NCBI GenBank assembly: GCA_963835005.1
Contig: CAWIEA010000001.1
Location: 70,336 to 134,335, forward strand
Direction: 5' to 3'
From: an uncultured Acidimicrobiia bacterium
GTDB lineage: Bacteria > Actinomycetota > Acidimicrobiia > IMCC26256 > JAENVU01
Length of the DNA stretch: 64,000 nucleotides
Below the pieces are notes generated by a model, which searched no databases, was not told where the DNA came from, and was given only the letters and a program-made list of their open reading frames with translations. A program made the translations under genes and the position numbers. Within the stretch, counting starts at the first letter, position 1, and each line of letters opens with the position of its first letter. Below are positions 19,823 through 27,227 of the stretch, in pieces.

Positions 19823-20746
19823 ATGCGACCTGGGCGGATCAAGCACAAGGCGCGCGCGCGTCATCGCCGCATCGCCATGACGGCGGCTGGTGTCAGCGCC
19901 CTCACGATGATGGGCGGCACGGCTGCGTACGCGACCGGTGGTGGCGGTTGGGACGGCGGACACCAGCACGACGGTGACGCGTCCCTCGACAACGGTGGCG
20001 ACGCGCATCTCAACGTCGACCAGTCCCAGTACTCGTTCACCGAGCAGCTCGCGCTGGCGAACACGGGTGCCAACAAGGCGCTCGGCGTCACGGGCAACCT
20101 GAACCTCGGTGAGCAGGACTGCGTGGCGGGCGTCGAAGGCGGCGACATCCACGGCGTCGATGACGACAACACCACCGGCAACGGTGGCGGTGACTGCACG
20201 AACGACGCGACGCAGTCGAACGACGGCACGGGTGAGGCGAACATCCACACCGGTGCCGCCACGGGCAAGAACGACTCGAAGACCACCGTCAACCAGAAGA
20301 ACGACGGCGACTCCTCGGTCAACAACTCGGCGAACGACAACACCATCAACGCCGACGACGGCAACGCGTCGCTCTCCAACGGTGGCAACGCCGGGCTCTG
20401 GGTCGGCCAGCACTCCGAGGTCCAGACCTCGCAGGGCGCGGAGGCCAACAGCGGGCACAACGTCGCCATCTCCGGCGTCATCGGCGTCAACGTGGGCAGC
20501 CAGAGCGGCTCCGGCGGGGTCACCGGCGGCAACATCGGCTGGGCCGGCGACGGCAACCAGGCCGGGAACTCGGGCGGCAACGCCTCGAACACGGCCCACC
20601 AGACGAACACAGGGAGCGCGACCGCGTCGATCACGACCGGAAGCGCGACCGCGTCGAACACGAGCGCCACGACCGTGACGCAGTCCAACACGGGCAGCGC
20701 CTCGTCGACGAACACGGCCAACGGCAACAACATCACCAGCGACTGA
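19823..20746 (+). CDS. secreted Gly/Asn/Thr-rich protein with two long internal repeats; putative fibre/amyloid subunit
   Basis: GGAGGT RBS; signal peptide ending AAYA; two units each with AN(T/S)GxN and IxTGxAT...TTVxQxN. Confidence 0.8.
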   Translation: MRPGRIKHKARARHRRIAMTAAGVSALTMMGGTAAYATGGGGWDGGHQHDGDASLDNGGDAHLNVDQSQYSFTEQLALANTGANKALGVTGNLNLGEQDCVAGVEGGDIHGVDDDNTTGNGGGDCTNDATQSNDGTGEANIHTGAATGKNDSKTTVNQKNDGDSSVNNSANDNTINADDGNASLSNGGNAGLWVGQHSEVQTSQGAEANSGHNVAISGVIGVNVGSQSGSGGVTGGNIGWAGDGNQAGNSGGNASNTAHQTNTGSATASITTGSATASNTSATTVTQSNTGSASSTNTANGNNITSD

Positions 20747-20761
20747 GACCACACGACGGTT

Positions 20762-20790
20762 CGGGGAGGGACGAGCAGCGTCCCTCCCCG
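20762..20790 (+). terminator. 12-bp stem hairpin between the two repeat-protein genes
   Basis: cggggagggacg-agcag-cgtccctccccg, 15 nt after the stop codon. Confidence 0.7.
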
Positions 20791-20849
20791 GATCGGCACT
20801 TCCCCAGTTCGTGCGGTTTGAGGGGCGGGAGACGTTGACCACCGCGGCA

Positions 20850-23040
20850 GTGCGCAATTCCATTCGAACCGGCCTGTTCGTGGCCGCATCCTTCGTCGCG
20901 GTCCTCGCGGCCGAGGGTCACGCGCACGCGGACGACCCCGCGCAGGCGGCGACACCCGCGCCCGACCCGAACGCGGGTGGCGCGACGCCGCCGCCCGACA
21001 CCACGCCGACCCCGCCGCCCGCCACCCCCGGCGGCTCCGTCGACGTCCCCACGACACCGAGCACTCCCCCGGACGCACCGACGACGATCCCGTCGGTGCC
21101 GACGATGCCCGGCGGCTCGATCGACGTCCCGGCGATCCCGACGACGCCGACGCTCCCGGCTGCGACGCCGCCGAGCGGCGACGAGACCGCGACCCCCGGT
21201 GCCGACGGCGGCTGGCCCACGACCACGGGCAACAACACCTCGCAGGACGCGGAGGTCACCACCGGCGGCAGCGCCGTCGCGAACACCGGTGGCAACACCG
21301 GCGTCGCGACCGGACCGGGCCTGCCGGGGATCTACCTCCCCGGCGGCGTGAGCTCCACGATCACGACCGGCAGCGCGACCGGCAACGGCTCGGTCGACAC
21401 GAACGGGATCTCGCAGGAGATCAACGCGACCGTCACCGAGAACGGCAAGGTCGTGGTGGTCCAGGTCGCAGTCATCGTCAACATCGGCATCGGGCTCGCC
21501 GGTTCGGGCGGCAACGTCGCCAACACCGAGAGCGTGACGCCGCCGAAGCTGGTCTCGTCGGTCGCGATGATCGTCGGCAGCGAGGCCGCCGGCGCGGGTA
21601 CCGGACCGACCCCCACCTCGATCATGACCGGCAACGCCAGCTCGACCGGCAACAGCGGGTCGACGCAGGTGACCCAGAGCATCGTGCTGACCGGCAACGA
21701 CGTCGCACAGCAGCTCGCCGCAGTCCTGAACCTCGGCGTCGGCGTCGCGAACTCCGGTCTCAACTTCGCGCTCGCCGCGGTGAGCGGGAACAACCAGGGC
21801 AGCCCGAGCAGCGTCACCTTCGTGACGACCGGGGCTCCGTCCTCCATCACGGCCGGCTCCGCGAGCGCGCTCGGGAACCGGTCGACGAGCGCCGTCTTCC
21901 AGGTCGTGACGGTGAGTGCGTCCGGCAACGGCAGCCTGCTGGTCATCCAGCGTGCCGTCATCGTCAACTTCGGGTTGGCGCTGGCGAACAGCGGGCTCAA
22001 CGTTGCGGGCGGAGGCGCACTCACCGCCGCGTTGCCGGACCCGGCCGCCGCGCAGCAGCTGCTCCTGATGCTCCTCGGCTCGGACAGCACGGCCTCGGGG
22101 ACGGCACTCGCCGGTGGCAGCGGTCCGGTCTCGATCGGGACCGGCAACGCGCAGGCAGTCGGCAACGACACCACCACCGGCATCCTCCAGCAGGTGAACG
22201 GCTCGGTGACCGGCGACGAGACCGCGAAAGCGATCCAGGACGCATGGGTCGGCAACTTCGGCCTCGCGCTCGCCAACACCGGTGCGAACGGTGCGGCCAC
22301 CGGCCTCGCCGGGATCGACCCGGCTTCGCTCGTTGCCGCACGCGGCGCGCTGCAGGCGTTCCTCGCCGGCCTGACCGGCATCGGTGATCCGCTTCAGGGT
22401 CTCGACGCGAGCTTCCAGCTCGGTGGCAACCTCCTGCAGCTCCACGGGGACGTGTCCGGCACCGAGTCGCTTGCTCGGCATCACCGAGCCGGGGACGGAG
22501 GTCGACTCGGACGACGCCGCCGTCGTGGTGCGCCAGGTGACCGCCGTCCTGAACATCGGCCTCGCGATGGGCGAGTCCGGCAACAACGCCGCGGTGGCGA
22601 CCAACGAGGGGACCGACCACACCGTCGTCGGCGGCTCCGGTGCCACCGTGGCGACGACCACGATCACGACCGGCGACGCGACCGCGGTGGGCAGCCACTT
22701 CGCGACCACGGTGTGCCAGACCATCGGCGACGCGCTCGCCTGCGCGGCACCGGACGGCCCCGACGACCCCGGCAACCCGGGCACGACCCCGGCAACCCCG
22801 GCAACCCGCAGCAGCCGACCGACGTGCACGAGGTGCAGACCCCGCCGGTCCCCGAGGCTCCGGCCACGCCCGGTGCGGGTCTCGGCCCCCGGAACGGTGC
22901 CCGCAACCCTCCCGTTCACGGGCTCCCCGATCGGCGCGGAGCTCGCGGCTGGATCCGGACTGCTCATCGCGGGGATGCTGATGGCTCGCCGCCGTCGCAT
23001 CGGAGCCCAGGACATGAGCACGTCGATCGACACCCGATGA
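20850..23040 (+). CDS. large secreted LPXTG-anchored protein with about 6 ANxGxN/IxTGxA repeats (frameshifted)
   Basis: Signal peptide ending AHA; Pro/Thr linker; repeats; C-terminal LPFTG, hydrophobic helix and RRRR; frameshifts near 22470 and 22800-22890. Confidence 0.8.
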
Positions 23041-24076
23041 GCGTTCCCGCCCGCAAGCTGACCCCGCCGGAGCCCACGCCGCCGCCCGCCGACGACTCGA
23101 TCATCGTCACCTGCGGCGCGTGCAACAGCCGCCAGCAGGCGTCGGGCACCGCGTCGGGCTTCACCTGCTCCGATGTGCGGCTCCGAGTGGCGGGTGCTGC
23201 GCTGCCGTGACTGCCGGTCGGCGTCCATCGTGCTCGCGGGTGTGCGCACCTGCCCGCGCTGCGGTCACCAGCACCGCGGTCCGAGGCGGTTCGGTGCCGA
23301 CCCGACGCGGCGTCGTGGCTCACCGATCCCGAGCCGCTCAGCGTCTGGCTCGGCGGCGTGAAGTACCTCGGCGGCCACGCCGGGCACGACGGCACGGTGC
23401 CGTCCGCGGCCTGCTGCTCGACCGGCGCGGCATCCACCTGCGCGCGTTCAAGGAGCTCCTCTCGATCCGGATGGGACTACGTCATCGGCGTCGACATCGA
23501 GGGCCCGCTCGACATCGCGGACCGACTCTCGATGTCGAAGCTGCTCGAGCTCGGCGCGTCGACGTGGGCGATGCAGCGTCGCGTACCTGACCGTGCGCAC
23601 GACGAACGGCGACGCGATCTTCGAGATCGACGGGCTGGCACCACCCGAGCTGCACGCGCGCCTCTCCCGCGTCCTGCAGGGCCTCCGCAAGGCCGAGCCC
23701 GAGCGGCCCGCGATCGGCATCGAGCGGCCGGCCCCGGTCGTCGATCTCCGCGAGGAGCGACGCGCCCGCGCCGCGTCCGGCCCGCGAGCCGGTCCCGCGC
23801 CCGAGGCCGTCCGCACCCCGGAGCCGGCGCACGAGCCGACCTCGAACCCGCGCCCCGGCCCCCGCGGCGGAGCCCTCGACGCTGGCACGCTGGACCCTCA
23901 GCGCACCGAGGCGCCGGTCGAGGCGATCGTCATCGACGCGCTGTGGAAGCTCGCGCAGCTCGCACGACCGCGGCCTGGTGAGCGACGACGAGCACGCGGT
24001 CCTGCGGACGGGCCTGATGGCCCGGCTCACCGAGGGTGCCGACGACCACGGTCGCGCGCCGCTCCTCCGCGTCTGA
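23037..24076 (+). CDS. hypothetical protein with CxxC zinc-ribbon N-terminus and SHOCT-like C-terminus (frameshifted)
   Basis: CGAC, CSDC, CRDC, CPRC; YLGGH; ALWKLAQLRDRGLVSDDE reconstructed across frames; ATGA overlap with the upstream gene. Confidence 0.6.
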
Positions 24077-24079
24077 GGC

Positions 24080-26377
24080 TCAGCGGCCGCCGGGCTTGAT
24101 CGGGCCCTTCGGGACGGTCAGGTTCAGGATCGCGTCGAACGCCTGCCTGCTCGGTCGTCGCGGGCCGCGTTCCAGAGCAGAGCCGGTCCGGGTCGGCGCC
24201 GTCGCCGGCACCGCGATGCGGTAGCCGGCGTGTCCGCTGACCGGGCGCGAGCGTGACGTCGAGCCGGACGATCGGGTCCGCCTTGACGACGACCGGGTTC
24301 GCGCCCTCGAAGCTGGACCTGGCTGACGTTCGCGGCGAGCTGCTTCGGGATGACCTCGATGACCTGGTCGGTCTTCGTCTGGTCGGTCGGGTTGCTGATG
24401 TCGACGAGTCGCGACGAGCTCGTTGCCCTCGTCGCCGTCAGCTGCCACGTGCGCGCGACGACGATCCCCGACGGCATCAGCACCGTCGGGAGCTTCATCG
24501 GCTCGAGCGCAGGCACGGCGACGTCGTCGGCGACGTGGGTCGGGATCGACTGCGCGGGCGTGGTCGGCGTCCCGGCGTTCTTGGCCCGTCGAGGATCACG
24601 CAGGACGAGCACCACGAGCGACACCAGCGCGAACGAGCGCGCCGAGCCCGAAGCGCACGAGCCGGCCGCGACGGCGCGACGCCTCGTCGGGCTCTCCCTC
24701 GATCAGGAGCGGCTCGGTCGTGATCAGCGGCGGCTCGACCCTCCGGTGCGCCTCACCCGGCGTCGAGCCGTGCCGGACTCCGGCGGGCTCGGTCACGCTC
24801 GTCGGGCTCGGCTCGGGCTCGGGCTCCGGCTCCGGCTCGGACGACGGGCTCGGGCCGAGCGCGGCTGCGGCCGGCGGCGTCGACGGCGTCGACGGTCCTG
24901 GAGCGGGCGCCCACGGCCGCACGACCGGCGGTGGCGTCGGTGCGCACCTCGATCCCGGGCTCGTGCGGCTCGGGCGGGACCAGCGGGTCGAGATGGTGGG
25001 CCGGCGCGGCGTCGCCGACCTCGGCGCTGCGACGGCGGCACGATCGTCCCGGCCAGCGCGGTCGGCACCGGGCCCGGTGCGCGGGCCGGGCTCGGGCTGC
25101 TGGTTCCGGGACCGGGGTCGGGTCCGGAAGGGGCGGGACCGGTGCAGGCTCGGGCGGGACCGGGCTCGGTGCCGGCTCGGGCGGGACGGCGCGGTGCGGG
25201 CTCCGGCTCGGGCGGTGCGGGCTCCGGTGCGGGCGGAGGCGGCACGGGTGCGGGCTCGGGTTCGGGGGGAGGCCGGGTCGGGGCCGGGCTCCGGAATCCG
25301 GCGCGGGCTCGGGCTCCGGCGGCGCGGGGCGGACCCGGTCGGGCACCGGCTCCTTCCCGGCCGCGCGGCGGCGGCGGTCGAGGGCGACGCCCAGGCGGGG
25401 AGGTCGGCGCGGCGGCGCCGGCGGTGCCGGTCGGGCGCCGGAACTCGGGCCTCGGGCTCGGGCATCGGGTGGCGGTCCGGTGGGACGACCGGGGTCGAAT
25501 GGATCACGGGCCGGGGCGGGGACGAACGGCGGCACCGTCGCGGCGGATCGGGCGCGCCGGGATCGAGCGCGGCGCGGAGCCGGTCGCCGAGCGCGACCGC
25601 GGAATCCGGCCGCTGCTCAGGCGGCTTCGCCATCGCGTCCTCGACGACGCGCACACGGCGTCGGGCACCCCCCGGCGGCGGAGATCCGGGACCGGCGCCT
25701 TGGCGATGCGGCCGAGCACCGCGTTCATCCCCTCGTCGGAGCCGGCCGGGAACGCAGGGTGCGCCCGAGAGCATCGTGAACAGCGTCGAGCCGAGCGAGT
25801 ACACGTCGGATGCGTCCGACGGGCGCCGACCCTCGACCACCTCGGGTGCGGAGTGCAGGAGGCTGACCGACGCCGGGCGCGCCTCCACGACGTCGAGCAG
25901 GCGGGAAAGGCCGAGATCCGCGAGGCACGGCTCCCCCGACGACGCGATGAGCACGTTCTCGGGGCGGATGTCGCGGTGCTGGATGCCTGCCGCGTGCGCG
26001 ACCGCGAGCGCGTCCGCGAGCTTGGCGACGATCGTCACCGCCTCGGACCACGGCACCCGACCGTCCCGCTCGATGCGGTCGGCGAGCGAGCCGTTCGGCA
26101 TGTAGTCCATGGTCAGGTACGGCTGGTCGACGGTCGTGAAGCCGGCGGCGAGCAGCGACACGAGGTTCGGCTGGGTCGACACCGCCCGCAGCAGCTCGCA
26201 CTCCCGGGCGTAGCGGCGGCGGAGCGCGGCCTCGGGCCGCGCCGGCAGCAGGCGCACCGCGATCGGTGCGGCCGCGATCGACCTCGAGCGCCCGGAAGAC
26301 CGACGCCGAAGCCTCCGGCGCCGATCTCGACCCCGTCGTCGAGTCCCGTCGATCCCGAGATCGACCCCGTCCTGCAC
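24080..26377 (-). CDS. Hanks-type Ser/Thr protein kinase with Pro-rich linker, TM helix and extracellular domain (frameshifted)
   Basis: IGAGGFG, YLTMDYMPNGSL, HRDIRPENVL, DLG, APE, SDVYSLG. Confidence 0.85.
24780..25460 (-). repeat. low-complexity (PE/PA)n coding repeats in the kinase linker
   Basis: Tandem ggctcgggc and ggctccgg units encoding PEPEP/PEPAP. Confidence 0.7.
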
Positions 26378-26534
26378 TGCCACGATCCGGTCGCTCCCTG
26401 GTGACAGCAGGCCGATCGGACCGTGGGCTCCTGGGCCGCGCCCGTCGTGGTCCGTCCGCCGCGGTCGGTCACTCAGCGTAGACGGCGGGTGTTCGGGTTC
26501 CCGTGCGTGCGCACGGCCCGCCGACCGCGAGGAC

Positions 26535-27227
26535 TCAGTCGAGCTGCTCGTGGAGGAAGTCGACCGTCCGAGCCCACGCCTCCTGGGCCGACGGCTCGTC
26601 GAAGTTCCCGAGCGGGTCCTCCTCGTTGCAGAAGGCATGGCCCATTCCGGGGTAGAGGATGAACGTCACGTCCTTCCCCATGTCCTCGAGCTCGCGGCCG
26701 AGCGCCATCGTCGCGTCGCTCGGGAAGAAGCCGTCGTTCTCGGCGAAGTGGCCGAGCACCGGGGCGGTGAGGCCCTCCCAGTCCGGCGGGTCCTCGCCGA
26801 TCGGCGCGCCGTAGTACGGGACCGCGGCGCCGATCTTGTCCCCTTGAAGTGCCGCGACCACGAGGGTGAGCATCCCTCCCATGCAGAAGCCGACCACCCC
26901 GACCGTGTCACCCGCGACCGCGTCGTGGTCGAGGAGGTAGTCGACCGCGGCACCCATGTCCCGGGCCACGCGGTCCATCGGCATCGCGTTCATGAGCTCG
27001 GCGGCCCGGTCCATCTCGGTGTGCTCGGCGATCTCGCCGTGGTACAGGTCCGGCGCGAGGGCCACGAAGCCGACGTCCGCGAGCCGGTCGCAGACCCGCT
27101 TGATCTGCGGGACGAGACCCCACCACTCCTGGAGGACGAGCACGCCCGGCGCGGGCGTCGTCTCGGGCACGGCGAGGTAGCCGGCTGCGCTTCCACCGTT
27201 GCTCGGGAACTCGACGGTCTCACCCAT
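26535..27227 (-). CDS. dienelactone hydrolase family protein
   Basis: QEWWGL, GFCMGG, YPGMGHAF. Confidence 0.92.
   Translation of the reverse strand: MGETVEFPSNGGSAAGYLAVPETTPAPGVLVLQEWWGLVPQIKRVCDRLADVGFVALAPDLYHGEIAEHTEMDRAAELMNAMPMDRVARDMGAAVDYLLDHDAVAGDTVGVVGFCMGGMLTLVVAALQGDKIGAAVPYYGAPIGEDPPDWEGLTAPVLGHFAENDGFFPSDATMALGRELEDMGKDVTFILYPGMGHAFCNEEDPLGNFDEPSAQEAWARTVDFLHEQLD

Follow-up and report, generated by a model that had tools for sequence, protein, structure and literature searches.

We describe a pair of adjacent genes, A and B, in a stretch of 64,000 nucleotides (nt) of DNA from an uncultured Acidimicrobiia bacterium (positions 70336-134335 of contig C1 in genome G000, called the window below; other G numbers denote comparison genomes). 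Gene A encodes a short secreted protein and gene B, directly downstream, a longer one that ends in a cell wall sorting signal. We regard two conclusions as secure on the sequence evidence: A and B are a conserved, narrowly distributed exported pair built from one undescribed repeat, and the longer protein, B, is a sortase substrate. Acidimicrobiia commonly occur in soil, water and sludge, and to our knowledge almost nothing has been learned about their cell surface. The pair is a concrete candidate, of two genes, for a surface fibre or coat in this class. We suggest, tentatively, that A docks on wall-anchored B to give a multi-subunit surface structure.

The A-B pair and its repeat

Gene A is intact. 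A GGAGG lies 11 nt 5' of its ATG, and G+C at third codon positions (GC3) is 0.88-1.00 across the open reading frame (ORF). The product has a signal sequence at about residues 1-37, with a basic and hydrophobic N-terminus, and a mature region (residues 38-307) that is acidic, rich in Gly, Asn, Thr, Ser and Asp (18.9% Gly, 13.7% Asn, 11.5% Thr) and free of Pro, Arg and Met. It is built of two units of ~129 amino acids (aa), which appear in the DNA as a direct repeat (D11) with 387-nt spacing; unit 1 contains Cys100 and Cys125, both in invariant columns. An earlier reading of this DNA from its letters and ORFs alone (the sequence-only reading) had described A as a 307-aa protein with a signal peptide, two long repeats of given motifs and no Pro or Arg in the mature region, and we find every one of these features. 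The residues conserved in the A family are chiefly Asn, Gln and Gly, with alternating small or hydrophobic residues. An exhaustive A-family profile search of 1.84 billion proteins yielded 27 representatives, and all 59 A homologs are either unnamed or 'hypothetical'. Two further proposals about A were discarded. Export by twin-arginine translocation (Tat), considered for a conserved RR in the signal sequence, was rejected as no TAT-signal model matched and the RR is missing in distant homologs. High expression was considered from codon bias, since among 3169 ORFs A lies at the 99th percentile for C3/(C3+G3); the test was dropped because dnaK and rpoB reach only the 58th-64th percentile and because abundant Asn and Asp push the value up.

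Intact B is ~725 aa long (725 aa in G004, a relative whose genome is 93% complete in ~150 contigs) and ends in LPFTG, a transmembrane segment (TM) and RRRR. The window carries it in two frames (Table 1): residues 3-543 of the G004 protein align by tblastn to 20844-22472, and at the frameshift the window has one base more than the G004 ortholog. The sequence-only reading had recognized the signal peptide, the roughly six repeats, the Pro-rich linkers and the LPFTG-TM-RRRR end, and had overlooked the frameshift, so that its single open frame does not hold. Translation likely begins at TTG 20835, which lines up with the ribosome-binding sites of orthologs (GTG 20811 is the alternative), and stops at 23038-23040. 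By eye, the signal peptide consists of a basic residue, a hydrophobic run and AHA before DD, and AlphaFold2 (AF2) models residues 4-24 as a helix. A Pro/Thr-rich linker of ~100 aa follows at the N-terminal side, and then the repeat core, whose grand average of hydropathy (GRAVY) is +0.33.

B has what is expected of a sortase substrate, namely an LPXTG-like pentapeptide followed by a hydrophobic stretch and a basic tail, a signal peptide, and a sortase in the same genome. In relatives B is intact, its orthologs ending in LPFTG, LPVTG or LAFTG signals, and the Pfam family Gram_pos_anchor matches 10 of 49 B-family members at E<=0.1. The window contains no sortase gene, as the sequence-only reading had said; a profile search of the whole genome placed PF04203 sortase matches above cut-off on contigs C9, C11, C5 and C8. 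The best NCBIfam sortase models, none of which reached its curated cut-off, are those of class E for C9 and C8 and of class F for C5.

The repeat is ~100 aa long. Its first part is long, alternates and ends in ANSGxN ('V.Q.A.V.N.G.A.ANSG.N.A.GN.S.N.A...Q'); the second part, past a variable loop, runs 'N.S.G.A.I.TG.A.A.GN.S.T.V.Q'. In B the motif 'Q.A.V.N.G.A.ANSG.N' occurs six times and 'I.TG.A.A.GN' five to six times. Pairwise similarity between A and B is marginal (BLASTP E 0.025), and a single-sequence search of G000 with A returned A itself only. Comparison of families by hhalign, 41 A sequences with 49 B sequences, gave a probability of 92.9% and E 3.6e-7 over 142 columns. We also built an independent repeat model from 14 units (92-109 aa) cut from a 1713-aa protein of G276, which belongs to another order. 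It scored 16.8 bits on window A, 54.2 on part 1 of B, 17.9 on part 2 and 66.7 on G004 B; the best of 200 A shuffles scored -22.4 and the best of 200 B shuffles -16.0, with no match among all 400. By these sequence comparisons A and B are paralogs that share one repeat, as the sequence-only reading had proposed from the shared motif.

That reading had also held that the motif fits none of the chaplin, curli and Fap consensuses, and our searches place the repeat in no characterised family. Neither A nor the parts of B matched Pfam (E<=1) or NCBIfam, the 15-unit G276 protein matched nothing in Pfam and NCBIfam, curlin repeats included, and the A and B profiles matched no PDB chain sequence. When the 49 B relatives were run against Pfam, Gram_pos_anchor was the sole recurring match, and four other families appeared in one or two members each (E 0.00056-0.042). 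The ESM Atlas placed A and B in unnamed clusters only (0.84-0.87), with structural rows at template modelling scores of 0.34 or less, and gave no lead. The source names of A and B homologs are 'hypothetical', 'beta strand repeat-containing', 'LPXTG-motif cell wall-anchored protein' and, once, 'trimeric autotransporter adhesin'; homologs of the window's proteins are by their source names proteins of Acidimicrobiia metagenome-assembled genomes. We did not meet the family among the articles listed for functional amyloid or for LPXTG proteins and sortases in Acidimicrobiia (articles without their supplementary files). As far as these searches and names reach, both the repeat family, missing from Pfam and NCBIfam and now defined by A-B, and the obligate pairing of A with B appear undescribed.

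The pair occurs in a few soil Acidimicrobiia. Searched with A, 9 of 41 relatives' genomes were positive, namely G000, 7 of the 10 other genomes of its genus, and G030; part 1 of B found the same set plus G035 (10 of 41). The three genomes of the genus that lack A also lack B, at completeness values of 56%, 63% and 91%. In an even sample of 301 genomes of the class, the A profile found 11, all in one order and spread over five families, and the B profile at E<=1e-10 found 13: the same 11 together with G265 and G276, which encode giant proteins of the repeat. A sample of the phylum gave 1 of 401 genomes, G000 itself, as a lower bound, the first-look filter there being stricter. The sequence-only reading had proposed testing A-B synteny across genomes. 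B lies directly downstream of A, on the same strand and at a distance of ~70-270 nt, in all 15 genomes that carry A (the 11 of the class sample and four further members of the genus, G001, G006, G009 and G010). The pair appears to be a conserved two-gene cell-surface module, found in one order of Acidimicrobiia among the genomes searched.

The hairpin between A and B and predicted structures

The locus had been called an operon. A and B are indeed neighbours on one strand, and the term needs qualifying for a strong hairpin between them that the sequence-only reading had overlooked. The stem-loop of the window folds at -35.7 kcal/mol (46-nt folding segment), below the minimum of -25.8 among 30 shuffles. 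A strong hairpin stands just past the A stop codon at all 12 loci that we folded, which represent five families (the window, G004, G002, G010, G008, G009, G030, G289, G311, G298, G314 and G035; G006 and G262 were left out). Energies at these loci range from -29.7 to -41.9 kcal/mol over the same length, each lower than all of 30 shuffles made from the 130 nt of that locus, and the hairpin is likewise present in G001. Stem sequences vary between lineages, and only in G289 does a T-run (TTTT) stand behind the hairpin. The hairpin may act as a partial terminator, or as a stabiliser of the mRNA 3' end, that lifts A over B.

Structure prediction had been proposed as a check for both proteins. With the alignment of 41 sequences, which is shallow (effective number of sequences, Neff, 2.3), the AF2 model of A has a predicted local distance difference test score (pLDDT) of 31.7; it is unusable and was not taken into a fold search. 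For G004 B the model has an overall pLDDT of 60.6 and a predicted template modelling score (pTM) of 0.60, and within it the repeat cores reach pLDDT 80-93 and form beta-hairpins of 10-12 residues. Units 4 and 5, and likewise units 5 and 6, are separated by a short helical insert. In a Foldseek search with this model the first row was FapC (PDB 9u4u) at E 0.17, which is not significant, and weak rows at E 2-8 included an ice-binding protein and tapirins.

We also predicted a complex of the two G004 proteins, pairing residues 38-305 of A with residues 120-640 of B and aligning the chains separately. The score was 0.47 (runs 0.50, 0.39 and 0.47), against 0.00 for the best of three controls, and the runs agreed in at least 81% of contacts. 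A had a pLDDT of 58-62 beside B and of 31 beside an unrelated chain. For calibration, 58 of 80 solved complexes and 2 of 110 mismatched pairs attained the complex mark. Of the solved complexes just 7 did so with scores of 0.60 or less, as did the two mismatched pairs that passed. The prediction lends weak support to binding of A to B, raising its odds modestly. We do not take it as evidence of binding, since a predicting model may stack two homologous repeat proteins in any case.

Proposed docking of A on B and its rivals

The arrangement that we tentatively prefer would work as follows. A and B would both be exported by their N-terminal signal peptides. A sortase would cut B at LPFTG and join it covalently to the peptidoglycan of the host bacteria, which we take to be single-membraned; the C-terminal Pro-rich linker of B would cross the wall and present the core of six ~100-aa beta-rich repeats. 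A, with two copies of the repeat and no anchor, would be released and would dock on B by like-on-like stacking of repeats, and further A would probably add, giving a wall-tethered fibril or coat. The hairpin past the A stop codon would end or stabilise most A transcripts, so that A would be in excess over B. What we infer here beyond the exported pair itself is that A binds B, in what ratio the two are made, that A polymerises, and whatever cross-beta or amyloid character the product may have. If A does polymerise on B, the pair would be a new solution to the design problem that chaplins and curli solve, in which a secreted subunit is tethered by an anchored paralog, and a new hydrophilic self-assembling scaffold.

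Comparison with known systems bears on this proposal. The Streptomyces chaplins (short ChpD-H and long anchored ChpA-C; PF03777) resemble A and B in combining short secreted and long sortase-anchored paralogs that have a common domain, a parallel drawn by the sequence-only reading and borne out by the available text of PMC5618241. Chaplin short proteins are thought to co-assemble with the anchored long ones, and both systems are actinobacterial, with GN-type turn motifs and a Cys pair (PMC5618241 and PMC13251363, in the parts available); by analogy, a short form tethered on an anchored long form may be proposed for both. The likeness does not extend to the sequence: PF03777 is undetected in A or the parts of B (E<=1) and in the 49 B-family members (E<=0.1). 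The chaplin domain is ~55 aa long and highly hydrophobic (PMC13251363, same limit), whereas the repeat here spans ~100-129 aa and mature A is hydrophilic, and chaplins have five short genes where each locus here has one, always beside B.

Curli, with CsgA as the major subunit and CsgB as the nucleator, are likewise made from paralogs on adjacent genes. CsgA resembles mature A in being rich in Gly, Asn, Ser and Ala, acidic and Pro-poor, in having conserved Gln, Asn and Gly positions, and in its near-identical GRAVY and isoelectric point (pI), computed as -0.72 and 4.05 for mature A and -0.72 and 4.51 for mature E. coli CsgA. However, hhalign of E. coli K-12 CsgA against A (A3 and A2) gave probabilities of 0.8% and 0.4%, Curlin_rpt matched nothing, even on the 15-unit G276 protein, the curlin repeat is about five times shorter than the one described here, and B, unlike curli, is anchored to peptidoglycan by sortase. 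No third gene is conserved beside A-B across families at the loci examined, where no search was aimed at csgG, csgE or csgF. Pseudomonas Fap (FapC major subunit, FapB nucleator) again consists of paralogs, with long imperfect repeats and strands rich in Asn, Gln, Gly and Thr, yet no A or B profile matches any PDB chain in sequence. Finally, generic LPXTG tandem-repeat surface proteins, among them CwpA and CwpB of Actinoplanes (in the part of PMC13251363 available), have the same order of signal peptide, repeats, Pro-rich linker, LPXTG, TM and basic tail as B; class E-like sortases in the genome and giant versions of the repeat add to the likeness. What distinguishes A and B from these is a repeat that occurs in no library searched and an obligate adjacent paralog of two units without an anchor, which is unusual.

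The main rival to docking is that A and B, though of one repeat family, act independently as monomers, whether at the surface or secreted: B an ordinary wall-anchored, rod-like or adhesin-like protein, A a small soluble or loosely wall-associated paralog, and their adjacency a product of tandem duplication and common regulation instead of binding or polymerisation. We consider this a real possibility, if a somewhat doubtful one. The repeat also occurs in single giant proteins with LPXTG- or LARTG-type ends and at least 15 tandem units, which need no partner, so that it can serve as an ordinary monomeric rod; the sequence-only reading had cast the anchored repeat protein as a fibre partner, and while the anchored repeat protein is there, the giant proteins fit an ordinary rod-like surface protein equally well. 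Further, B is modelled as one body (the pTM given above), no structural match to amyloids is significant, and the hairpin suggests that A and B can be expressed separately. Other observations also weigh against docking: there is one A gene per locus, unlike the multi-paralog chaplins; the A model is unusable and the overall confidence of the B model low; the complex score may reflect the stacking of homologous beta repeats by the predicting model; a promoter and terminator pattern scan found 0 promoter-like sites and did not score the hairpin of the window as a terminator, since it has no T-run; and no RNA data on the locus were found (none of the sequencing runs listed for this sequence holds more than 0.08 of its words, and none of those listed is an RNA holder). 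On the other side, perfect co-occurrence in fixed order in 15 of 15 genomes and five families exceeds what we would expect of a drifting duplication, the complex score stands above its controls, if only as weak support, and the confidence of A rises only when it is paired with B. If A and B are merely ordinary surface proteins, the value of the finding is limited to the annotation of a new repeat family. At the opposite pole, A could be a true functional amyloid subunit, as in curli, Fap or chaplins, exported unfolded and nucleated by B into cross-beta fibres resistant to sodium dodecyl sulfate. The sequence-only reading had gone this far, with A as the major fibre subunit and B as the wall-anchored nucleator, which is a stronger form of the docking that we prefer; the one direct hint of nucleation is the weak complex score. 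This reading comes from the analogy with chaplins (the short-secreted and long-anchored layout, PMC5618241, as far as its available text goes) and from the curlin-like composition, GRAVY and pI of mature A; the conserved Asn, Gln and Gly with alternating small or hydrophobic residues, the poor folding of A alone in AF2 with its gain beside B, and FapC as the first Foldseek row, not significant as it is, point the same way. We nevertheless think it unlikely, given that the sequence searches found no homology to curlin, chaplin or FapC, that a unit of ~100-129 aa is much longer than known amyloid repeats, that giant single-chain versions of the repeat exist, and that the low pLDDT of A perhaps reflects nothing but its shallow alignment. 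It is as improbable that the pair founds a new class of functional amyloids or fibres in Gram-positive bacteria, unrelated in sequence to those known, in which B with its six repeats would template open-ended polymerisation of the curlin-like, two-repeat A and the terminator hairpin would set the ratio of subunit to anchor.

Docking would be moot in this strain if the module were decaying, with real frameshifts in B (one) and in gene C, next downstream (at least four), leaving B unanchored and the system inactive. Five frame changes do fall within ~1.6 kb (22469-24076), none of them in A, and no long homopolymer lies at the site in B. We nevertheless consider decay very unlikely and the frameshifts in both genes most likely assembly indels, because in G000 three other genes, rpoB (in domain 6), dnaK and that of a class E-like sortase, are likewise broken across two reading frames, and because B and C are intact in the relative G004; rpoB and dnaK are essential. 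The G000 genome (4.7 Mb, ~71% G+C) has a completeness of 68.8% in 14 contigs, as expected of an indel-rich consensus, and GC3 stays high in the shifted frames, which indicates that the sequence has not drifted. It is more improbable still that A and B are beta-solenoid-type binders of ice, minerals or polysaccharide that use flat Thr/Asn/Ser-rich faces and form no fibre. Their Thr-, Asn- and Ser-rich repeats with alternating patterns, the weak Foldseek rows noted above and an Ice_binding (PF11999) protein with a sortase beside A in G010 would suit such a function, but Pfam Ice_binding matches neither A nor B, and the G010 neighbour is an insertion at that locus only.

Gene C, neighbouring genes and feature coordinates

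Gene C, which the sequence-only reading had described as coupled to B, does start within the B stop codon through an ATGA overlap; that reading had overlooked that at least four frame changes are needed to reach the stop, so that an intact C is not seen in the window. G004 has it intact, at 346 aa and with the same overlap. Its layout is a double zinc ribbon, a conserved middle domain that fits no known family, a linker rich in Pro and, at the C-terminus, a short, conserved, helix-like end; the zinc ribbon is supported by weak DZR and Zn_ribbon_TiaS matches, below cut-offs. C has no signal peptide, and yet it is translationally coupled to the exported wall protein B. We rejected C as a member of the module outside the genus, since B is not followed by a C homolog in G035, G289, G311 or G314; C and the Ser/Thr kinase gene downstream are kept only within the genus. 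The G000 assembly is apparently rich in single-base indels, and any 'pseudogene' in it needs a check against reads.

Table 1. Coordinates of the A-B locus, of related proteins and of neighbouring or split genes (positions are those of the window unless a locus or contig is given)
Feature	Location	Strand	Details or basis
Gene A, 307-aa secreted protein	19823..20746	+	ORF, translation, GC3 frame plot, composition
A repeat unit 1, ~129 aa	19968..20354	+	D11; repeat model domain residues 77-164
A repeat unit 2	20355..20743	+	D11; repeat model domain residues 194-294
GC-rich stem-loop, 17-nt arms, 5-nt loop, no T-run	20757..20795	+	folding
Gene B part 1 (frame of 20811)	20835..22469	+	signal peptide, Pro/Thr-rich linker, units 1-5
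Gene B frameshift	22469..22470	+	frame plot, tblastn matches overlapping in two frames, DNA alignment
Gene B part 2 (frame of 22384)	22471..23040	+	unit 6, Cys-x8-Cys, Pro-rich linker, LPFTG, RRRR
B LPFTG sorting signal	22909-22923	+	then hydrophobic stretch, RRRR; lies 3' of frameshift
Gene C, zinc-ribbon protein	23037..24076	+	start overlaps B stop (ATGA 23037-23040); stop 24074-24076
Gene C ortholog	L034 4020-5057	-	
Giant repeat protein, G276	L033 98-5233		1713 aa, 15 tandem units, Pro-rich linker, LARTG-type end
Giant repeat protein, G265	L032 2-10534		>3500 aa, units parted by long stretches rich in Gly and Ala (GGAGG-type)
Trans_reg_C gene upstream of A, G311	L036 6271-7032		
Trans_reg_C gene upstream of A, G314	L038 5917-6882		
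Trans_reg_C gene upstream of A, G035	L029 3143-4033		
Split rpoB/dnaK, G000	contig C9: 373653-374961, 506690-508403		frames
Split class E-like sortase, G000	contig C8: 46484-46775		frames

The kinase gene (Pkinase, PF00069) lies at 24596-26638 on the minus strand, convergent to gene C, and holds the same position in G004 and G010; its product has a Pro-rich linker and a membrane segment, and its extracellular C-terminal domain is without assignment. In G010 (L031, G010:C2, 9173-10990) the Ice_binding protein, which has a C-terminal hydrophobic tail and a basic end, and a sortase of its own stand between a PhyH-like dioxygenase gene and gene A; this pair is absent from the window. In G311, G314 and G035, which belong to other families, a gene with a Trans_reg_C DNA-binding domain (OmpR/PhoB-type), without a receiver-domain match, lies divergently just upstream of A. 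It is not adjacent to A in the genus of the window, and from its position it may be a dedicated regulator of A where it occurs.

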